The notes under the pieces were generated by a model. The model did no database searches. It was not told the origin of the DNA and worked only from the letters and a program-made list of their open reading frames with translations. DNA of 53,863 nt from Candidatus Asgardarchaeum abyssi (GTDB taxonomy: Archaea; Asgardarchaeota; Asgardarchaeia; Asgardarchaeales; Asgardarchaeaceae), in NCBI GenBank assembly GCA_040225955.1, contig JBECUL010000010.1:1-53863 (forward strand), given 5' to 3'. This document shows positions 1,486-28,834 of this stretch, piece by piece (position 1 is the stretch's first letter; each line of letters starts with the position of its first letter). The translations under genes and the position numbers were made by a program.

Positions 1486-2082
1486 ATGACAAGAGTGAAT
1501 ATTTACAAGAAAGGAATTAGAGTTCTAGGTATAGCAGAAAGTTTTAGGAAAGGGGTTTCAAGAAAGGCAGTACTAGTCGGAATCGTTATGAGAGGGGATT
1601 TTTTAATCGACGGATTTAACTTAGGATTTACTACTGTAGGTGGTTTAGATTCAACGGATAAGATAATAGAACTTTATAAAAATTTAAATAGAACAGATAT
1701 AGGCGCTATATTGCTAAATGGCTGCATAATAAGCTGGTTCAATATTGTTGATTTAGAGAGGGTATTTGAGGACACCGGAAAACCAGTCATATGTATAACA
1801 TATGAAGAAAGTGATGGAATAGATCGTTATCTTATGGAATACTTTCCAGATAGTTGGGAAAAACGATTAGAAATCCATAAAAGAAACGGTGATCGTGTAC
1901 GTATCCTTTTAAAAACAAGACATCAAATTTACATTCAAGCTAAAGGAATTTCTACCAGAAAGGCTTTAATTCTTATTAACAAATTTACAAAAAACGGAGC
2001 CATTCCCGAGCCTCTTAGAGTTGCAAAAATAATTGCAAATGCTATTAATCAGAAAATCAATAAAGAAATATTGTTTGGCTGA
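1486..2082 (+). CDS. DUF99 / UPF0215 family endonuclease V-like protein
   Basis: RVLGIAESF, TVGGLDST, GCIISWFNIVD and IPEPLRVA motifs. Confidence 0.85.
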   Translation: MTRVNIYKKGIRVLGIAESFRKGVSRKAVLVGIVMRGDFLIDGFNLGFTTVGGLDSTDKIIELYKNLNRTDIGAILLNGCIISWFNIVDLERVFEDTGKPVICITYEESDGIDRYLMEYFPDSWEKRLEIHKRNGDRVRILLKTRHQIYIQAKGISTRKALILINKFTKNGAIPEPLRVAKIIANAINQKINKEILFG

Positions 2083-3229
2083 CTTCTTTTATTAGAAGAT
2101 TGTCTATTTTTAATTTTACTTTTACAATTATGCTTTCATTTACTAAATTGAATGGTGTTCTCCAAGAAATAGTTTCAACTCTTTTTACATTAGGCTCCAA
2201 TACCACAAAAGCTTCATGAATTACATTCTCAACATCCTTTGCAGTATAACTTACTATAAGATTACAACTGATAGTATTATCGGTAATGTTTCTAATATTC
2301 ACATTGAAAGATAGTAAATCATCAGTAGGCGCAGCGGTAGGGAGATTTTTAAGGGCAATTTCAATAGATTCTGAAGGTACTTTACGAGGAGTTTCATATA
2401 TCTTATCAATGTATTTTCTTCCTTTAGGCCAGCTAGGTATTCTACCCAACTCAAATAATCTTGCTATAGATATTTTTACCTCCCTTGTTGACACTCCGAG
2501 ATCCCGTGCGCAGTCTTCTACATTAAAGACACCATCATGATGAATATAATAATTAAGAACCTTTTCATCAAAATTAGCAATATCAAGTACTTTACTCAAA
2601 GAAGCTATTATAACATCAGGCAGCTGTTTTGCTTCACGAATATCAAAATATTTGCCATTACCTTCATTTGCTAATACAAGAAATGAATCGTGAACATAAG
2701 GATTACAACCAACTATAAAGAAAAGCATATCAGGTTTATCTTTAATGTTATGAACTATATTTAAAATGTCAAGACCAACAGGACACCCATTAGGCCATCT
2801 ATCTTTAACCCCATAGATTTGTGGTGCAAATTTTGTATAGCCATGTGGTGGTGCATCACCTATCAAAATTATGATTTTATAGGCATCACGACGCCATGTA
2901 GCGTTATAGGCAGCCCATAAACCGTCAGCGACAGCTTCAGGAGGATCGCCACCACCACCTATTTCAAGCTCACTAATGAATCTTAACACAGCATCTATAT
3001 TATCCGTGGGCGGGTAAAACTTTGTGACAAATGTTTTATCCTCAGGAGGGTGATCTCTATATGCAACCATGCCAAATCGAATGTCCAATTTTTTCTTCTT
3101 TTTCTTAAGAGTGTTAACAATATCATATAAGCTCTCTTTGACAATATTTATATCATCAGCCATAGAACCAGTAGCATCTACCACAAAGATAACGTCAATA
3201 ATATAATGTGATTTTTGGCCTCGAAGCAT
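2057..3229 (-). CDS. vWA-domain protein with winged-helix and C-terminal Ig-like region
   Basis: MIDAS DATGSM, GGGDPPEAVADGL, IIILIGDAPPHG. HTH-like VEDCARDLGVSTREVKISIARLFELG. Beta-rich C-terminus. ATG at 3229 follows a GGTGA SD. Confidence 0.8.
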   Translation of the reverse strand: MLRGQKSHYIIDVIFVVDATGSMADDINIVKESLYDIVNTLKKKKKKLDIRFGMVAYRDHPPEDKTFVTKFYPPTDNIDAVLRFISELEIGGGGDPPEAVADGLWAAYNATWRRDAYKIIILIGDAPPHGYTKFAPQIYGVKDRWPNGCPVGLDILNIVHNIKDKPDMLFFIVGCNPYVHDSFLVLANEGNGKYFDIREAKQLPDVIIASLSKVLDIANFDEKVLNYYIHHDGVFNVEDCARDLGVSTREVKISIARLFELGRIPSWPKGRKYIDKIYETPRKVPSESIEIALKNLPTAAPTDDLLSFNVNIRNITDNTISCNLIVSYTAKDVENVIHEAFVVLEPNVKRVETISWRTPFNLVNESIIVKVKLKIDNLLIKEVSQTIFLY

Positions 3230-3330
3230 GAGCTTCACCAAAGTTCTCTTTAAAATAATATTCTAAACTTTGCATTTAACATTTTCCTATCTTATTAGAT
3301 TACAATTGAAATGGTATACATAAAACAAAT

Positions 3331-4350
3331 TCATTGATAACTATATAGTTTGGTTTTTCTTATCTTAAGTATGCTATATGCAAATAAAATGTAAAACATA
3401 AATGATGAAATAATTAAAATTATTGTTATCGCGATTAGGTTTAACTGCTGATAAATGTAAATGCTAACAAACACAGCTGCAACTAAAATTCCAATGAAGC
3501 TAGTTTGCATTTTTTTCTTTTTCATACCGCTAACAGTCCCAAATACAAAAACCATTATGACTATTGCCAGTGCAATATTGTTAATGTAAAAAAATATAAC
3601 ATCTCTTAGTTCTGAAAAATACAGCCATATAACGGCTAGTGTGAGAAAAAAACAAAGTTCAAAAATTCGAATAGCATGGTATGGCACATCGGTTGTCTTC
3701 ATGCCAATAATATCTATTTCCTTGTGTATTTTATACAAGAAAATTATTTCAATCAAAGATCCATATGCTAAAGAATTTGCAACCCAAATTGATAAAGCAG
3801 CTATTATTTCTATATGTTGATACCATACAACAATAAGTGAGAAAACAATTCCAACCATATTAGAAAATACCAATATTGCTATGAAATATCCTAAGGTAAG
3901 AAGAAGAATTGTTGAAAAAATAGACCATAGAATCCATATCAATTTGCCATGTTTCTCTATATCTATTAAGTGGCTCACAATCCTTCCTGCAATGATAAAA
4001 CACATTACTATGGTAAATAAAGGAGTTACTAAAGGAATTATGAAAAAGGTTGCAACAATGAGAGCATTAACACCATAGAATATTTTCCATTTAAGAGGAA
4101 TAAGGCTTGTAGTATTTTTTAGCTCTATAAAGGCTTCTGGCAGTATATTTCTTAATTCATAGATAAGAAATATCCATGGAAAAGAAATTACTAGGGCTGT
4201 TAATATCTTTATTGCAGTCTCAGGTATGGGCAATGGCACAACAACGTTACCTATTTCTGGAATTATAAATACTAGAATTATGAAATATATCGGCGTTAAA
4301 AGTGCTAATATGAGTGTTAATAGTTTTGCGTAGAAAATTTCTTGAGTCAT
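3331..4350 (-). CDS. multi-pass membrane protein of unknown function
   Basis: About 9-10 hydrophobic segments. Probable ATG at 4350. Confidence 0.7.
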   Translation of the reverse strand: MTQEIFYAKLLTLILALLTPIYFIILVFIIPEIGNVVVPLPIPETAIKILTALVISFPWIFLIYELRNILPEAFIELKNTTSLIPLKWKIFYGVNALIVATFFIIPLVTPLFTIVMCFIIAGRIVSHLIDIEKHGKLIWILWSIFSTILLLTLGYFIAILVFSNMVGIVFSLIVVWYQHIEIIAALSIWVANSLAYGSLIEIIFLYKIHKEIDIIGMKTTDVPYHAIRIFELCFFLTLAVIWLYFSELRDVIFFYINNIALAIVIMVFVFGTVSGMKKKKMQTSFIGILVAAVFVSIYIYQQLNLIAITIILIISSFMFYILFAYSILKIRKTKLYSYQ

Positions 4351-20437: not shown

Positions 20438-21574
20438 TTATCTTTTTCTGTATTTTATTTTTATTATATAGCCACCAATCACAGCTAATATGACCACCAA
20501 TATGGTGATTCCAAGAACTTGGAAAAACGTATATCCGCCCCAAACCCATGGAGATTCTTCATTCAGTGATAACAAAGCGTCTAGTTCGGCTAGAATTAGT
20601 AATGCTAAGGATGTTGCAATAGGGTTGGATTCCATTTCATCGTAATATGTAAAGCCACCATCTGATCTCTGTAAACTAAGAACCCATGATACAATAGCTT
20701 CCTTTTTTCCTGATAGTTCTTCAAACTCTTTGAGCAGAAGAACACCATAATATGTTAAGTAGATATTGTAAATTTCTTTTTCTGCATCTCTATAGAAGAA
20801 TCCAGAATCATTATATAGAGAAATAACCCACGCTTTTAGACTATTAGTATCTATTTCGTCTTCAGCATTGAGTATTCTAAGTGATTTCCAAGCCATATAA
20901 GCTGCGTCAAGTGAAACATCAGTTGAATTTGGGAACATAGCAAATCCACCATAATTACTACTATTTTCATCTAGCAACTGTAAGTTTTTTATCCAATTAA
21001 TTGTTATAGTTTTATTTACAATATCATCAACTGCGTTTAATGAATTTAAAATCATCAATGCCGCGTATGTTGTTGATAAAGAGGACTTGTCACCAGGTGC
21101 CATTGAAAAAGATCCATCTTCATTATAACAGCTATTAACCCATGAAATTAATGCTGTCTTATTAATTAAATCCTCATCCTCTAATTTATTTAGTTTATCT
21201 AGTAGCAAGACTGCATACATACTTGCATAAATATCAACATGATCAGACTCAGGTTCGGAAAACGCCCCATAATTTGGTGATTCTTTATCGCTGATTTGTC
21301 TGTTTTTTAGCCAATCACTCATAATTGTAGTATTTACTTTCTCATCAAAGTCCTCAATCTCAAGAAGACTTAGTGCACTATACGCATAATATGAGACTTT
21401 TATTGACAAGTGTCCTCCTTTAGTAAGGAAGAATGCTCCTTCTTCCTTATCATAATGATTCAAAAGATAATTAACAACGAGGTCCTTTCTGCTAGTGGCC
21501 GATAGTGCTGGAGAAAAAACACTTACCAAGAGGATTGAAAGAATTAATACCATTATAAAGGATTTATTGCTCAA
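20438..21574 (-). CDS. secreted, membrane-anchored prenyltransferase/squalene-cyclase repeat (alpha-alpha toroid) protein
   Basis: Signal peptide (TTG at 21574 after GGAGG), repeated W..SLQ..DGGF...TY.A units, C-terminal TM plus a basic tail. Confidence 0.8.
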   Translation of the reverse strand: MSNKSFIMVLILSILLVSVFSPALSATSRKDLVVNYLLNHYDKEEGAFFLTKGGHLSIKVSYYAYSALSLLEIEDFDEKVNTTIMSDWLKNRQISDKESPNYGAFSEPESDHVDIYASMYAVLLLDKLNKLEDEDLINKTALISWVNSCYNEDGSFSMAPGDKSSLSTTYAALMILNSLNAVDDIVNKTITINWIKNLQLLDENSSNYGGFAMFPNSTDVSLDAAYMAWKSLRILNAEDEIDTNSLKAWVISLYNDSGFFYRDAEKEIYNIYLTYYGVLLLKEFEELSGKKEAIVSWVLSLQRSDGGFTYYDEMESNPIATSLALLILAELDALLSLNEESPWVWGGYTFFQVLGITILVVILAVIGGYIIKIKYRKR

Positions 21575-21644
21575 TGCTTTACCTCCTTTCAGTATTAAAC
21601 AGCATGGTGTGAAATAAAACAAACATAAGTTATAAAATTAGTGG

Positions 21645-21998
21645 TTAATCAGTTTTATCAAAAACGGTATTTAAAATGTTATTAAGAAATTTCTTTGCTT
21701 CCCTCATTGCTATCTGTCCCTTTTCAGTTATAACATAATACTTCCTGTCAGGACGCCCGTCTTCACCTTTTTGCCATTCTGTTGTTACAAGTCCCTCCTT
21801 TTTCAGTTTATATAATACCACATATGATGTAACTGCGGCTGAACTAAAATTGAAGATTTCTTTTATTTTTTTTCTAAGTTCATATCCATACATAGGTCTT
21901 TCTTGTAGTAATCGGAGAACATAGATCCATAAGTTCTCCTTAGTAAGTTTTTCTTTCAATCGTTCAACTGCCGATATCTTTTCACTCACAGCAACCAT
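21645..21998 (-). CDS. PadR-family transcriptional regulator
   Basis: LLQERPMYGYEL, Y.VLYKLKKEGLV, RKYYVITEKG. Confidence 0.92.
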   Translation of the reverse strand: MVAVSEKISAVERLKEKLTKENLWIYVLRLLQERPMYGYELRKKIKEIFNFSSAAVTSYVVLYKLKKEGLVTTEWQKGEDGRPDRKYYVITEKGQIAMREAKKFLNNILNTVFDKTD

Positions 21999-22051
21999 AC
22001 CTCTTGCTATGCGGATTTATTCATATTAATAAGATAATTTCACTTTATAAA

Positions 22052-22085
22052 ATATTCCATCGATGTGGAACATAGAATCGATCTA
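22052..22085. promoter_or_regulatory. candidate operator palindromes between divergent padR and roadblock promoters
   Basis: ATATTCCA-TCGATG-TGGAACAT inverted repeat followed by TAGAATCGATCTA. Both have an ATCGAT core and lie between TATA-like boxes. Confidence 0.4.
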
Positions 22086-22138
22086 AAATTATATCGGAGT
22101 TTTTAAACATAATTAGCAGATCTTATAATGTGATAACA

Positions 22139-23068
22139 ATGCTACAGAAAGATGATTTGCTTGAAGAAATAAATAATATGTGTGAGACCGTACTCAAGGT
22201 TCCAGGAGTTTATAATGCTACGATAATTCAAGTAGATGGTTATCCTTTAGCGACAACAGGTGTTTGGCTAGCCGAAGATGAGGTATTTGATTTAGGCGCA
22301 ATAGTTGCAGCAATAAGCATGGCAGCAAGAAAAATAGAGAGAAAACTTGATTATATTCTCGTTGAAGGAACTGATAGCAAGATAGCAATTTTTAATCTAA
22401 TAAAAGATAAAATAATTTTAGCAACAACTACATCAAAAAATGTTAATCTGGGCGCACTTTTCATACAAGCAAAAAGACTTAAAAAAAGCATTAACCCATT
22501 AGAAAGATACGTAGATCTTCTTGTTAAAATGCCACTTATAGAGTTTAATGAAAGTGAGAAGAGAAGGCTCATTGAAAGAACTAAGACACATAACTTATAT
22601 GATAATAGTTTTATCTCTATAGGGAGACTCTGGATGCAGATTACACCAGCACTGTACGAAGAAATTAGTAGCATTATTAATGAATTTAAGAGAAATTTGA
22701 ATCAGAAGATAGAAGTTTTATTGATAGCAAACAACGCTTTCCAAATATTTCCATTAACAAATACAGAACCATCAGCTAACCCCTTAGCGTTTTCACTATT
22801 TGATATCTCAAGAAAATTATTAAGGGTTTTTAGACAAGAGGATATTGAGCAGTTAATGATATCTTTTAGTACGCAGGATATTTTCATTTACGACTTCTTT
22901 GGTGGAATAATTGTCATTAAGATAATAGACAAGAATTTTAAAATTGGACTTATTCGTCTTTTGGGATTCACACTAAGGAAAAAGCTCTCTACGGTGTTCG
23001 AAAAACATTCTGTTAATATTAAGAAATTAAAACCAGAAATTAATTTAGCGGATATTTTGAGTGATTAA
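22139..23068 (+). CDS. tandem roadblock/LC7 (MglB-like) domain protein
   Basis: First domain VPGV..ATII.VDGYPLA...ILVEG..SKIAI...VNLGAL is canonical roadblock. The second half repeats the alpha-beta-beta-alpha-beta-beta-beta-alpha pattern (FKIGLIRL). Confidence 0.8.
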   Translation: MLQKDDLLEEINNMCETVLKVPGVYNATIIQVDGYPLATTGVWLAEDEVFDLGAIVAAISMAARKIERKLDYILVEGTDSKIAIFNLIKDKIILATTTSKNVNLGALFIQAKRLKKSINPLERYVDLLVKMPLIEFNESEKRRLIERTKTHNLYDNSFISIGRLWMQITPALYEEISSIINEFKRNLNQKIEVLLIANNAFQIFPLTNTEPSANPLAFSLFDISRKLLRVFRQEDIEQLMISFSTQDIFIYDFFGGIIVIKIIDKNFKIGLIRLLGFTLRKKLSTVFEKHSVNIKKLKPEINLADILSD

Positions 23069-23069
23069 T

Positions 23070-23945
23070 ATGCTTTCACCAATCCCATATCTAATGGGTA
23101 TGGGGTTTAGCATTCAAGAGTTAGGAAAAATAATATACTTATTATTCATCAGATCTCCTATTGTTATAATTGGAAAAGATAATGAGAAAAACAAGCAGTC
23201 GGTAAAGGCAATAGTAAAATTAATGCCACATAGGAGAGTATATTACTTTGGAATAGATTTCTTTGAGGAAAATGAAGTTAAAGAGATAATTAACAATGAA
23301 AAACTCGATTATAATGTTCCTAGAGCTATCTTTTGTGCCTTTCCTAATAATAGTAAGATTGCACTCAAAAAATTTAATAACTTTTACAGCTGGGTTTTAG
23401 GGATCATGGATCAAGATTCTATACATGATAATTATATTGACATAGAACACTTTTCAGTAGTAAATGTAGACTCATTAAAGATCACAACTCCAAATAGGAT
23501 TACATCTAGATTAAGCTTTGAAACTCAAATCATTAAGAACTCTATTAAGAAGTCAGAAGAAGTTATAGTTAGATTAAAAAGAGTTTTAGAGAAAAAAATA
23601 TCAAAAAATAAGAACTCTTCGCCATTTCTTAAAGAGTTGCTGGATTTTGATGAGGAAAAAGCTACTATTATTAATGATTTTTACAATGAGGCAATAATGG
23701 AGTTCATGCACGCTGCCAAAAGAGTATTAGCTATATTCTTGAGAATAAAAGCTCTGAAGGATTTGGGAATATATAACTTAACAATTTCCGAGGCAAATAT
23801 TAAGGAGGCTATAAATTATAGATTCGTTTCACTACAAAGAATTTTAGATTTTATATATCATGAGTGGGGTGAGGACTTTAGAAATATCCTAACTAACAAT
23901 AAGAGTGATGTTCTTGGAGACTGGATTGATAGTTTGTGGGGATAA
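23070..23945 (+). CDS. DENN-like (cDENN/dDENN) domain protein
   Basis: IIYLLFIRSPIVIIG...SVKAIVKLMP and SWVLGI resemble the cDENN core. Helical C-terminal lobe. Coupled to the neighbouring genes. Confidence 0.5.
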   Translation: MLSPIPYLMGMGFSIQELGKIIYLLFIRSPIVIIGKDNEKNKQSVKAIVKLMPHRRVYYFGIDFFEENEVKEIINNEKLDYNVPRAIFCAFPNNSKIALKKFNNFYSWVLGIMDQDSIHDNYIDIEHFSVVNVDSLKITTPNRITSRLSFETQIIKNSIKKSEEVIVRLKRVLEKKISKNKNSSPFLKELLDFDEEKATIINDFYNEAIMEFMHAAKRVLAIFLRIKALKDLGIYNLTISEANIKEAINYRFVSLQRILDFIYHEWGEDFRNILTNNKSDVLGDWIDSLWG

Positions 23946-23947
23946 AT

Positions 23948-24514
23948 ATGATTATTGATTGGTACAATCACAAAATTATAGTAAAAATAGTATATTACGG
24001 CCCAGCGATGAGTGGGAAAACAACGACAATTAGGGGAATTTTAAAAAAATTTGGACAAGAGGACGTTTTACAATCACTAGAAACAACAACAGGAAGAACA
24101 TTATTTTTTGATTTTGGCTTCATTACAAAACAAAATGGAGATTGGACTATTATGATTAACTTATGGTCAGCAACAGGACAGGATTACTACATTGCAACAA
24201 GAGAAAGCGTACTTAAGGGCGTTGACGGTGTAATTTTTGTGGCTGATGCTTCTCCAAATAGAATTGAGCATAATAAGCAAAGCTGGGGAGAATTACAAAA
24301 ATTTTTGCTAAATGATATAAGCAATATACCAGTTGTAATAGCATTAAATAAGGTGGATATCAATGGTGCGATAGACGAAAAGACACTCATAAATGCTTTG
24401 AAAATTGATACGAAAAATCATCCTATATTTAAGACTATTGCAAAAGATGGAATGAATATAATGTTGCCATTAAAAGTAATATTGAAAGAAATCTTTAAAC
24501 TTATTAATACATAA
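23948..24514 (+). CDS. MglA-like small GTPase
   Basis: KIVYYGPAMSGKTT (G1), GRTLFFDF (switch I with intrinsic Arg), SATGQ (G3), NKVD (G4), TIAKDG (G5). Confidence 0.9.
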   Translation: MIIDWYNHKIIVKIVYYGPAMSGKTTTIRGILKKFGQEDVLQSLETTTGRTLFFDFGFITKQNGDWTIMINLWSATGQDYYIATRESVLKGVDGVIFVADASPNRIEHNKQSWGELQKFLLNDISNIPVVIALNKVDINGAIDEKTLINALKIDTKNHPIFKTIAKDGMNIMLPLKVILKEIFKLINT

Positions 24515-24546: not shown

Positions 24547-24837
24547 CTAAATAAAACGTTGCCTTCTTAGCTTTCTTTCTTCTTCAGCTCTAATTTTTAC
24601 AATACCACGGTGAACCGCGCAACTTATGCAATAATATTTAACTTCCGTTCTTACTGGTATATACGCGCCTTGCTTACGTAACTCTCTGGCCAACTGAGGA
24701 TCTACCAGTGATACTCTTACAGTAACTTTTTTAGCCTTATCGCGTGGAACTAATCGTCCACATGCACTACATTGTACAGATCCAGGACGACCACTACCAC
24801 CTTTTGCACGACCTCGGCTCTTTCTCTTCTTAGGCAT
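24547..24837 (-). CDS. rps26e: 30S ribosomal protein S26e
   Basis: MPKKRKSRGRAKG...CSACGRLVPRDKAKK...YCISCAVHRGIVKIR. Confidence 0.97.
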   Translation of the reverse strand: MPKKRKSRGRAKGGSGRPGSVQCSACGRLVPRDKAKKVTVRVSLVDPQLARELRKQGAYIPVRTEVKYYCISCAVHRGIVKIRAEEERKLRRQRFI

Positions 24838-25498: not shown

Positions 25499-26122
25499 AT
25501 GCCTAAAGATAAAGAGCTTGATGTAAGGATAAAAAGGCTTGAGAAAAGAGTAGAGGATACTATATGGAAAGCAGCTCTTGTTATCAGTAAAACAATCCAG
25601 AAGGTATATCAAGAAGTCGAATCAGTAAGAGCAGATGTAACAGCATTATCTAACAGAGTTTCTGAAATTGAAAAACGTCTTACAGATATCGAAAAGAAAG
25701 GAACGTCAATACAACCAGCGGTACCCACACAACAACCACAATATTCTCAACCTGCAACAACTTCAGCAACATCAACACCTCAAACGCCTCAAACTAGGCC
25801 AACCCCACCATCAATGTCTCCTCAAGTTTCGCAACCTCAACCTCAATATACTCAGCCCATGGCAACTCAACAACCTACGCAAATGAGACCTGTTCCACCA
25901 GCTGCTACAACAGTATCTCAACCTCAAACAGTATCTCAACCTCAAACAGTATCTCAACCTCAAACAGTATCTCAACCTCAAACAGTATCTCAACCTCAAC
26001 CAGCAGCACAGCCAACGCCTCAAGCAAGGCCAGCTAGTTCCCAAGCGATATCTGGAGTTAACTTACAACAAGAACTCCTTAGCGAGTTAAAATCTCTTTT
26101 CAGACGAAGTAAGGAAGAGTAA
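25499..26122 (+). CDS. coiled-coil / Pro-Gln-Thr-rich linker / C-terminal amphipathic helix protein
   Basis: 207-aa ORF with AAGGAG SD. N-terminal heptads, low-complexity linker, terminal LQQELLSELKSLFRR. Confidence 0.75.
   Translation: MPKDKELDVRIKRLEKRVEDTIWKAALVISKTIQKVYQEVESVRADVTALSNRVSEIEKRLTDIEKKGTSIQPAVPTQQPQYSQPATTSATSTPQTPQTRPTPPSMSPQVSQPQPQYTQPMATQQPTQMRPVPPAATTVSQPQTVSQPQTVSQPQTVSQPQTVSQPQPAAQPTPQARPASSQAISGVNLQQELLSELKSLFRRSKEE
25910..25999 (+). repeat. perfect 18-bp coding tandem repeat x5 (ACAGTATCTCAACCTCAA; TVSQPQ)
   Basis: Five identical in-frame units read directly from the sequence. Confidence 0.95.
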
Positions 26123-27464: not shown

Positions 27465-28232
27465 ATGTACTTTGAAAAACCACAATATGTTGTAGTTGTT
27501 TTAGGGCCTGCAGGCTCTGGTAAAAGTACATTGGTCGCATCATTTTATGAGTGGCTACATGAAAATAATGTTAGCGCAAAATGCGCAAATTTGGATCCGG
27601 GAGCAGAATATCTTCCGTACGATCCTGTTTGGGATATTAGAAAGTATTTTACAATATCACAAATAATGAAAACTAAGAAACTTGGACCAAACGGCGCAGT
27701 TATAGAAGCGATGAACATATTGTTGCAAAATGCAGATAAATACATTAAAGAACTTTCAGAAATAAAAACCGAATATCTATTGTTGGATACACCAGGACAG
27801 CTTGAAGTTTTCGCTTTTCGTGATGTTGGAGTGACTTTTCTTGACTTATTACAAAAAAGAATGGTAGCTCATGGACTTTTTCTTATAGATGGAGAGATGT
27901 TTAATGATATAATAAGCCTTATCGTCGCAAAAGTTCTTTCTCTAGCTGTTGAATTAAGGTTATCTATACCAATTATCAGTATTATAAATAAAGGCGATTT
28001 GATCGATCAAAAGGTAGTAAAATTGCTGGATGATCCTAAAAAGGTTAAAGAAATAATTATTAAAAGCAATAAGGGAGAGTTAATTGAAGTAGCGTTACAC
28101 TCTTACGATCTGCTTCTTAAACTAAAAGCAGCATTGAGACCTATAATTGTCTCATCTACAAAAAAGGAGGGATTCGAGGAACTATATGATGTACTTCATG
28201 AAATTTTTTGTACATGTGGAGATTTGACATAA
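27465..28232 (+). CDS. GPN-loop GTPase
   Basis: [32 protein letters not shown]-terminal CTCGDLT. Confidence 0.93.
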
Positions 28233-28300
28233 CTTTAATAAGATTTTTAAACAAATATGGAATTTTTAATTTTGAGATAACTGCCTTAATGGTGAAAAAA

Positions 28301-28834
28301 ATGACTATTGTTATGGATATTATTAACGATTTAATAAATATCAGAAAATATAAGAAAATATCCGAAGAGAAGAAGGAGTGGGGGATCGAGGTTCTGGCAC
28401 AAAATCAGAAAGGCGAAGACGTACTTATTTGGGGATTAGAAAAAATAAAAATAGTAGGCATAAAATGGGTTAGAGTTATGGCCGCGGAAATGAAAAAACG
28501 AAACATCCCACTTGGAATAATTGTTGGCGGTAGCAGATCTACGAAAGCTGCTCTCAAAGCAGCAGAGGAGAGCAATATAGATGTTATAACAAGAGAATTA
28601 CAATTATCACCTATTTTGAAACATAAACTAGTTCCAGAGCATCAAATAATGAGCGAAGAAGAAGTAGAAGAACTTTTAAAGAAAATGGGTATTAAGAAAT
28701 TCCAACTCCCGTGGATAAAATCAACCGACCCTGTAGCGAAAGCAATTGGCGCAAAACCAGGTGATGTTATCAGGATTATTAGAGAGAGTCCAATAGCTGG
28801 GAAAACATACTATTACAGATATGTCGTATCGTAA
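28301..28834 (+). CDS. rpo5: RNA polymerase subunit Rpo5/RpoH with RPB5-like N-terminal domain
   Basis: C-terminal HKLVPEH...[29 protein letters not shown]...YYRYV. Extra ~100-aa N-domain containing VGIK. ATG at 28301 after GGTGA. Confidence 0.92.

Follow-up and report, generated by a model that had tools for sequence, protein, structure and literature searches.

A predicted DENN-fold protein encoded between a tandem roadblock protein and an MglA-type GTPase in an Asgard archaeal operon

To our knowledge, the DENN, folliculin and C9orf72-type regulators were long considered specific to eukaryotes, and every characterised DENN-fold protein that we know of is a regulator of GTPases. Bacterial MglB is sufficient on its own as a GAP, and the RomR and RomX proteins of Myxococcus are now proposed to act as an adaptor or effector that binds the GTP form. 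For Asgard archaea, Liu et al. predicted an operon that combines Roadblock, small GTPase and DENN proteins, and put forward the idea that it is a FLCN-like GTPase regulator (bioRxiv 10.1101/2020.10.19.343400).

Here we describe a locus of this composition within a window of 53,863 nucleotides (the whole stretch of DNA that was analysed). The study by Liu et al. is said to have been published in Nature in 2021. The finding is not new, because these authors had predicted the same operon composition: the operon has been known since their 2020/21 prediction, and its three components and its conservation in Asgard archaea as a putative operon are reproduced here. What we add are only refinements, namely that the GTPase is MglA-type rather than Rab-like, that the roadblock protein is a tandem duplicate, and that the predicted DENN protein is longin-less. 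We consider it likely that the locus represents the "Roadblock + DENN + small GTPase" operon of Asgard archaea in one more genome and that it works as a self-contained small-GTPase switch.

The tandem roadblock protein and the GTPase

Gene 1 (P0001; 22139..23068, plus strand) encodes a 309-residue protein in which the initial annotation, made from the letters alone, saw two roadblock-like domains. Pfam and the AF2 model bear this out, and orthologues of the gene adjoin the DENN gene in 45 of 49 loci. Domain 1 (residues 1-128; 22139..22522, plus strand) is recognised by Pfam Robl_LC7 at residues 12-87 (E 9.1e-6; 25.8 bits, where the cut-off is 23), and VIA matches it to the Roadblock protein 3kye_C (Z 13.4, rmsd 1.2, 113 residues aligned), MK-D1 Roadblock3 9jue_B (Z 13.0) and MglB 6izw_C (Z 12.8, rmsd 1.8, 120 aligned). 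It is also the better conserved half of the protein, with G23, V24, D33, G34, P36, G41, E48, I59, E76 and N103 invariant. The AF2 model (pLDDT 82.2) contains one alpha-beta-beta-alpha-beta-beta-beta-alpha unit at residues 1-128 and another at 170-291, joined by a linker that is weakly modelled (residues 150-163, pLDDT below 50).

The initial annotation left the class of the second domain (residues 170-291; 22646..23011, plus strand) between roadblock and longin. Its DSSP order, H-E-E-H-E-E-E-H with a helix at the N-terminus, is that of a roadblock and not that of a longin, and in hhalign its profile matches that of domain 1 over 117 columns (probability 90.5%, E 1.3e-6). Because the topology and the internal profile match agree, we assign domain 2 as a roadblock, which by the same model-derived topology and profile comparison appears to be a diverged internal duplicate of domain 1. 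Gene 1 thus encodes a fused roadblock pair, which within a single chain takes the place of a roadblock dimer of the MglB or LAMTOR type.

Gene 3 (P0003; 23948..24514, plus strand) encodes a 188-residue small GTPase, assigned from its motifs, Pfam and solved relatives. It carries a P-loop (G-P-A-M-S-G-K-T), a switch-I G49-R50-T51, a G3 motif S-A-T-G-Q that includes Q78, and N-K-x-D. Its best solved relatives are MglA 3t12_A (E 1.6e-28) and Myxococcus xanthus MglA (E 1.2e-27), and the next solved family, Arl8A, follows at E 6.8e-10. R50 aligns with the R-T of Thermus thermophilus MglA, and G49, R50, T51 and Q78 do not vary among 22 orthologues. Where the canonical G3 motif has aspartate, each of the 22 aligned sequences has S or T, and MglA reads T-V-P-G-Q here. 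Judged from these alignments, the GTPase of gene 3 is MglA-type and supplies both the switch-I arginine and the catalytic glutamine itself; the initial annotation had likewise read it as MglA-type with the intrinsic arginine. Pfam gives Arf at E 1.4e-10 and Gtr1_RagA more weakly at E 1.8e-5; since the GTPase, with MglA as its nearest relative among solved structures, is not Rag-type, we rejected membership of a Rag/Ragulator system.

The genome also holds MglA-like paralogues on contig 7 (36099-36704) and contig 13 (34732-35301). The orthologue profile gives 275 bits for the operon GTPase and 110 bits for the next paralogue in this genome. Pfam recognises no roadblock neighbour for either paralogue, and the 135-residue protein next to the contig 13 copy does not match the gene 1 profile.

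When complex prediction was run with the DENN partner against the roadblock protein plus the GTPase, the score was 0.55 (runs of 0.58, 0.55 and 0.02), whereas the controls, one of which swapped the roadblock protein, gave 0.00 as the best of 3. Of 80 solved complexes, 58 reach the mark used for such scores, as do 2 of 110 mismatched pairs, but only 7 of those 80 do so with scores of 0.60 or under, together with both of the passing mismatches. Between runs, at least 60% of contacts are shared, and the partner has a pLDDT of at least 78; no interface was reported. The predicted docking is lost when the roadblock protein is replaced. These models hint that the DENN protein may bind the roadblock protein and the GTPase.

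The same three proteins could be read in another way, as an MglA/MglB-style polarity or motility switch in which the DENN-fold protein, as an effector or a localising adaptor, would bind the GTP form instead of serving as a GEF or GAP. It is true that the GTPase and the first roadblock domain come closest to MglA and MglB, and it is established that bacterial MglB needs no partner to act as a GAP. However, no motility or pilus genes adjoin the trio in the window, where it lies beside genes for PadR, eS26, a prenyltransferase-like protein and an amidohydrolase, and the regulatory role established for characterised DENN-fold proteins argues against an adaptor, as, more faintly, does the disappearance of the predicted docking with a replaced roadblock. 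We regard the polarity switch as unlikely and prefer the self-contained GTPase switch.

The DENN-like fold of the middle protein

Gene 2 (P0002; 23070..23945, plus strand) encodes a protein of 291 residues (about 290-310 in its orthologues), which AF2 models with high confidence (pLDDT 91.3, pTM 0.88) and which AF2, VIA-align and the ESM Atlas together characterise as a longin-less DENN-fold protein. The model begins with an alpha/beta core (residues 1-140; 23070..23489, plus strand) whose strands, at residues 31-35, 56-60, 86-90, 108-113 and 129-132, have helices between them. A central DENN domain is described as an alpha/beta sandwich of three layers, its sheet made up of about five strands (PMC3521125); the modelled core agrees with this, and it aligns with the DENN domains of DENND10, FLCN, DENND1A and SMCR8. 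It is followed by an all-helical lobe resembling dDENN (residues 149-290; 23514..23939, plus strand), with helices at 149-178, 194-231, 241-248, 255-266 and 278-290, and the alignments with DENN modules extend into this lobe as far as residues 264-278. An N-terminal longin (u-DENN) is absent from the chain: residue 1 of the 291 already belongs to the alpha/beta core.

An exhaustive VIA-align comparison of the model with 48,161 chains placed five DENN-module chains at the top of the ranking. The best match was DENND10 8p0v_M (Z 13.1, rmsd 4.2, 187 residues aligned), with FLCN 6nzd_H (Z 12.2, rmsd 3.3, 181 aligned), FLCN 3v42_B (Z 12.1), DENND1A 6ekk_A (Z 11.4) and SMCR8 6lt0_B (Z 11.2) behind it; GspE 2oap_1 and C9orf72 7o2w_A came next, tied at Z 10.7. 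Every one of the DENN matches covers residues 1 to about 270. Rows 2-8 of the ESM Atlas search were likewise the Avl9/DENND11, SMCR8, MTMR13, DENND1A, DENND6B and Afi1 families, together with an unnamed cluster that has Pfam DENN, with TM values of 0.51-0.56 as against 0.36 for the next, non-DENN rows. Foldseek against the PDB was less discriminating: its E-values were weak (8e-3 and above, none at or below 0.001), and because it mixed DENN chains with AAA+ ATPases, VIA-align was needed to separate them. On the strength of the model, then, gene 2 is predicted to have the cDENN plus dDENN fold of the eukaryotic DENN, folliculin, SMCR8 and C9orf72 proteins without their longin. The DENN-like character that the initial annotation gave the middle protein might have been contradicted by an unrelated nearest fold, but DENN modules came out closest, and the reading stands.

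At the level of sequence, DENN membership is only weakly suggested. The window's own copy of gene 2 matches no Pfam family, Pfam and NCBIfam giving noise only. Folliculin_C is the sole Pfam family matched by more than two of 35 relatives (three of them, best E 4.8e-4), and PF02141 (DENN) is touched by one of the 35 at E 0.09; for neither family was the gathering score shown to be passed. A profile search of PDB sequences returned no DENN protein, giving instead ferritin-like chance matches to the helical part (E 0.008), and eight distant relatives matched no Pfam DENN or longin family. Two longer relatives, P0024 (400 residues) and P0058 (370 residues), were considered as candidates for a fused longin and were rejected, as they have no Pfam DENN or longin match.

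Could the middle protein be no DENN homologue at all, but an alpha/beta domain like that of P-loop NTPases, now degenerate and carrying a helical lid, that is similar to DENN proteins in general architecture only? GspE (Z 10.7) and FlaI (Z 10.1) do match it from residue 1 to 255, many AAA+ and RFC chains reach Z values of about 8 over residues 1-135, P-loop ATPases (Z of about 8-10) are aligned with the core alone (model range 1 to about 135), and the weak Foldseek E-values, like the failure of any DENN family to pass its Pfam threshold, are what such a protein might give. But DENND10, FLCN, DENND1A and SMCR8 outrank all ATPases, and do so over both lobes, with C9orf72 tying GspE; the Atlas TM values set the DENN families well apart from the best non-DENN row; and the core lacks a Walker A motif, its invariant residues being R28, P30 and R55. 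The standing of Folliculin_C as the only Pfam family to match more than two members, and neighbours (roadblock and small GTPase) that are the partners of DENN modules, also speak against a P-loop origin, which we therefore consider very unlikely compared with a DENN fold.

Operon layout and conservation in the phylum

The ORF listing gives three open reading frames on the same strand, at 22139-23068, 23070-23945 and 23948-24514, and the letters at the junctions agree with the initial annotation of a co-oriented trio with gaps of 1-2 nucleotides. Between genes 1 and 2 the sequence reads TAA-t-ATG (23066-23072), a 1-nucleotide gap, and between genes 2 and 3 TAA-at-ATG (23943-23950), a 2-nucleotide gap, so that both downstream genes have ATG starts. 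GTG alternatives are present at 22130 (gene 1), 23061 (gene 2) and 23936, and their use would make the genes overlap. The trio is bounded by minus-strand genes on either side, PadR (21645-21998) and eS26 (24547-24837). The intergenic region upstream of gene 1 (21999..22138, plus strand), which also serves the divergent PadR gene as its upstream region, is a candidate promoter region for the operon; on reading the sequence it has TATA-like A/T-rich stretches at about 22044-22052 and 22100-22107, although such strings are common because the genome has about 30% G+C.

The arrangement extends well beyond this window. By profile, the gene 2 family is present in 110 of the 201 sampled genomes of the phylum (64 of the 86 of high quality), mostly in single copy, and the order roadblock, DENN, GTPase is found in 45 of 49 relatives' loci, which come from eight families besides the window's own; the flanking genes vary from one locus to another while the order of the trio stays. 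The initial annotation had proposed operon conservation in Asgard genomes as a check, and these counts answer it favourably. In 17 of the 26 families sampled, among them f4 with 0 of 21 genomes, the profile did not find gene 2 relatives, and because of this, conservation "in most Asgard" should be taken either as limited to some lineages or as masked by orthologues that are too diverged for the profile. The nearest named relatives are MAG proteins from Asgardarchaeia, Baldrarchaeia and Promethearchaeota, and public records name the proteins "hypothetical".

The three genes are thus tightly packed and stay together in a constant order over much of the phylum, and together they make up a genuine Asgard archaeal operon. 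That they are mere neighbours without a common function is a reading to which we give almost no weight, since gaps of one and two nucleotides and an order retained in 45 of 49 loci with differing flanks mark the trio as more than a chance neighbourhood.

Proposed switch and comparison with known systems

In the self-contained switch that we favour, the tandem roadblock protein would bind the GTPase 1:1, as the MglB dimer binds MglA, and would stimulate hydrolysis by positioning the GTPase's own arginine and glutamine. The DENN protein would dock on the roadblock protein, such that roadblock and DENN in trans would resemble a longin-DENN module, and once docked it may serve as a co-regulator (an exchange factor or a GAP cofactor) or as a localiser.

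We are more hesitant about a further step, a possible but on balance doubtful one, in which the DENN protein, lacking a longin, pairs stably with the tandem roadblock protein, the heterodimer being a "split" DENN module that acts on an MglA-type GTPase. The loss of predicted docking with a replaced roadblock is the one hint, a slight one from the models, that goes beyond the published prediction. If the idea is right, the split module would be a surviving example of the state before fusion from which the eukaryotic longin-DENN regulators arose, with the roadblock in the longin's place. The initial annotation had raised both a "split ancestral DENN module" and a "Rag/Ragulator/FLCN-like circuit", and the locus might be interpreted along either line; its GTPase is not of the Rag type.

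The operon offers a simple three-protein archaeal system in which to probe how such regulators act and how the longin-DENN module of eukaryotes came together. It bears on the origin of eukaryotic GTPase regulators, for which the credit belongs to the 2020/21 prediction of Liu et al.; this locus adds one copy, found in a lineage to which Asgardarchaeia are the closest relatives with a name, along with the refinements given above.

Among known systems, the bacterial and archaeal MglA-MglB pair of GTPase and GAP (T. thermophilus 3t12; M. xanthus 6izw and 6h5b) shares with this locus the intrinsic switch-I arginine, the catalytic glutamine and a neighbouring roadblock gene, but here two roadblock domains lie in one chain in place of a homodimer, and a DENN-fold gene stands between the roadblock and GTPase genes. 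The Ragulator-Rag-FLCN lysosomal circuit likewise brings together one or more roadblock platforms, a small GTPase and a DENN-fold regulator. In our case, however, the GTPase is a single domain of 188 residues without the C-terminal roadblock domain of Rag/Gtr proteins, and there is no longin subunit with an Arg finger, so that the likeness is best taken as an analogy of parts and not as membership. Unlike the eukaryotic DENN modules, gene 2 has no longin (uDENN) in the same chain, the roadblock protein being encoded separately upstream; its putative client is MglA-type and not a Rab, Rag or Arf; and sequence similarity is at or below detection. Like DENND1A/B-Rab35 (3tw8, 6ekk), FLCN-FNIP2 (6nzd), C9orf72-SMCR8 (6lt0, 7o2w) and DENND10 (8p0v), with Z values of 10.7-13.1, it is predicted to combine a cDENN core with a dDENN lobe, and like those modules it is associated with a small GTPase and a platform of the roadblock/longin type.

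Genes and genomic setting of the trio

Three plus-strand ORFs in the window, at 22139–23068 (gene 1), 23070–23945 (gene 2) and 23948–24514 (gene 3), encode a tandem roadblock protein, a protein predicted to adopt a DENN fold without a longin domain, and an MglA-type GTPase, respectively. The stop/start junctions, TAA-t-ATG for genes 1 and 2 and TAA-at-ATG for genes 2 and 3, match exactly the 1–2 nt spacing described in the initial annotation. Because both flanking genes, that of a PadR regulator on the upstream side and that of ribosomal protein eS26 on the downstream side, lie on the minus strand, the trio looks from the gene layout like a stand-alone transcription unit. The G+C content of the window is low (about 30–37%), the assembly that holds it as contig 10 is Asgard archaeal, 2.6 Mb in size and 93% complete, and the window's proteins have their nearest named relatives in MAGs of Candidatus Asgardarchaeia, Baldrarchaeia and Promethearchaeota.

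Genes further out encode housekeeping proteins (an RsmB-like methyltransferase, an amidohydrolase, a prenyltransferase-like protein, a radical-SAM enzyme, a GPN-loop GTPase, Rpo5 and GlxRS), and among the genes around the trio in the window we found nothing pointing to the output of the GTPase switch. Several of the neighbors have features of their own. The GPN-loop GTPase gene (27465–28232) directly precedes that for Rpo5/Rpb5 (28208–28834, plus strand), whose product has a long N-terminal part matching Pfam NA-iREase1 (E 3.8e-6), an inactive restriction-endonuclease-like domain, ahead of the Rpb5 C-terminal domain. A 207-residue protein (25499–26122, plus strand) combines an N-terminal coiled coil with a long Pro/Gln/Thr/Ser-rich stretch containing perfect TVSQPQ repeats; its sole match, to DUF1664, is weak. 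On the minus strand, 20438–21622 encodes a prenyltransferase/terpene-cyclase-like alpha-alpha toroid repeat protein (Pfam Prenyltrans, E 7.6e-45) with hydrophobic segments at both termini, and it may therefore be surface-anchored instead of acting as a lipid-synthesis enzyme.

Folds and family assignments of the three proteins

The gene 2 protein matched no Pfam or NCBIfam family. An exhaustive HMMER search gave 67 representative relatives, almost all of about 290–310 residues, and from 35 of these AlphaFold2 predicted an alpha/beta core (residues 1–140) followed by a helical lobe (149–290), with a pLDDT of 91.3 and a pTM of 0.88. Foldseek matches in the PDB were weak (best E 8e-3), with C9orf72, DENND1A/B and FLCN interspersed with AAA+ ATPases. 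VIA-align, run on the Foldseek candidates and, as an independent search, on the full set of 48,161 representative chains, placed DENN-module proteins at the top (DENND10, Z 13.1; FLCN, 12.2 and 12.1; DENND1A, 11.4; SMCR8, 11.2; C9orf72, 10.7), each covering both lobes from residue 1 to about 270. Secretion ATPases were close behind (GspE, Z 10.7; FlaI, Z 10.1), and the remaining P-loop proteins aligned to the core only, at Z about 8. The core of the gene 2 protein lacks a Walker A motif. Shape searching of the ESM Atlas separated DENN from other folds better than VIA-align did: after a Thorarchaeota cluster of the protein's own family (TM 0.83), the next seven rows were all DENN (Avl9/DENND11, SMCR8, MTMR13, DENND1A, DENND6B, Afi1 and an unnamed Pfam-DENN cluster; TM 0.51–0.56), after which the score fell to 0.36. 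At the sequence level, Folliculin_C was the sole recurring Pfam family among 35 relatives (three members, best E 4.8e-4), and Pfam DENN was matched once (E 0.09). As modeled, the fold is that of DENN (cDENN plus dDENN), and the protein is likely to be homologous to DENN, an assignment made by fold rather than by sequence-level family membership; the longin domain, which is defining for DENN, is absent from the chain. R28, P30 and R55 are invariant among the relatives aligned.

Two longer relatives, P0024 (400 residues) and P0058 (370 residues), carry extra N-terminal sequence that matches no Pfam family. Three ORFs of about 320 residues each in other sampled genomes (G001:C1:65637-65813, G111:C56:10093-10251 and G034:C4:25703-25870) match the DENN-fold profile at positions ~1–60 only (E 1e-5 to 5e-4); they may be remote paralogues that have the beginning of the alpha/beta core in common.

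In gene 1, Pfam places a Roadblock/LC7 domain at residues 12–87, slightly over the curated cut-off. The AlphaFold2 model (pLDDT 82), made from 26 orthologues picked as neighbors of DENN genes in relatives, contains two alpha-beta-beta-alpha-beta-beta-beta-alpha units, at residues 1–128 and 170–291, joined by a poorly modeled linker. The fold-search hit lists were taken up by domain 1, which superposes on Roadblock 3kye_C (Z 13.4, rmsd 1.2, 113 residues aligned), MK-D1 Roadblock3 (Z 13.0), MglB (Z 12.8–12.0) and LAMTOR2 (about Z 11.9). Domain 2 was assessed by comparing profiles of the two halves, which hhalign aligned in register over 117 columns (probability 90.5%, E 1.3e-6). Since this second domain begins with a helix in the model, the roadblock rather than the longin order, it is predicted to be a roadblock, which settles the choice between roadblock and longin posed in the initial annotation. 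The invariant residues among the 26 orthologues lie mostly in domain 1.

For gene 3, the closest solved relatives are MglA of T. thermophilus and M. xanthus (E 1.6e-28 to 1.4e-27), with Arl8 and Rab7 trailing (1e-9 to 1e-7). The P-loop, switch-I G-R-T, G3 A-T-G-Q and N-K-x-D motifs are invariant over 22 orthologues, which, as in MglA, have Ser or Thr at the usual position of the G3 Asp. Among at least 17 small-GTPase matches in the window's genome, gene 3 stands in a group of its own: its score to the operon-GTPase profile is 275 bits, vs 110 bits for the runner-up. Two further MglA-like paralogues in that genome, on contig 7 (36099–36704; L051) and contig 13 (34732–35301; L052), score 110 bits to the same profile; neither has a recognizable roadblock gene beside it.

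Conservation of the trio across the phylum

The trio is real and well conserved. Of 201 genomes sampled across the phylum, 110 had a match to the gene 2 profile; among the 86 high-quality genomes, 64 did. The family is single-copy in nearly all genomes with a match and concentrated in nine of the 26 sampled families; the profile did not find it in the others (for example, 0/21 in family f4). The order roadblock, DENN, GTPase is retained at 45 of 49 loci from relatives, which cover eight families in addition to that of the window. Of the four exceptions, two are truncated by contig ends, a third is a distant paralogue, and at the fourth the DENN gene stands by itself. The flanking genes vary between families, so that the trio itself is the conserved unit. 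It had already been described by Liu et al. (bioRxiv 10.1101/2020.10.19.343400), who predicted an Asgard operon of Roadblock, small GTPase and DENN genes and proposed that it acts like folliculin; the window's copy adds refinements only. The passages on Asgard GTPases and roadblock proteins in the later paper PMC10933270, and on longin GAPs in the likewise later PMC12290439, contained no experimental characterization of this biologically attractive trio that we could find.

The locus with the DENN-fold gene alone (L020, G137:C139:17956-21846; gene at 1498–2394, plus strand) is the sole complete one of the 49 to lack both partners, roadblock and GTPase; the ORFs beside the gene, of 230 and 426 residues, are unrelated. 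At L042 (G182:C66:66754-72713), the plus-strand ORF at 2492–3463 encodes a divergent 323-residue DENN-fold paralogue (profile E 2e-25, phmmer E 1e-5), preceded by a 293-residue ORF with no match to the tandem roadblock and with no GTPase gene adjoining; it may represent a second DENN-like family.

Predicted complex and proposed mechanism

A single complex prediction was made from the three alignments, with the DENN protein scored against the roadblock protein plus the GTPase. It scored 0.55 (runs 0.58, 0.55 and 0.02), and the best of three controls, one of which had the roadblock protein replaced, scored 0.00. Of 80 solved complexes, 58 pass the mark for this score, as do 2 of 110 mismatched pairs; with scores of 0.60 or lower, only 7 of the same 80 solved complexes pass, plus both passing mismatches. 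The runs share at least 60% of contacts, and partner pLDDT is at least 78. The prediction weakly supports binding of the DENN protein to the roadblock protein plus the GTPase, and hints that docking would occur via the roadblock protein.

Beyond the identities of the three proteins and the linkage of their genes, we infer a mechanism from what is known about MglA/MglB (Miertzschke et al., 2011, cited by PMC10933270) and about DENN modules (PMC3521125). The tandem roadblock would most likely serve as a platform for the GTPase, as the MglB dimer does for MglA, boosting hydrolysis via the GTPase's own Arg and Gln, and the DENN protein would most likely be an addition to that platform. Roadblock and DENN together would tune exchange or hydrolysis, or localize the switch, and this module assembled in trans would resemble the longin–DENN module.
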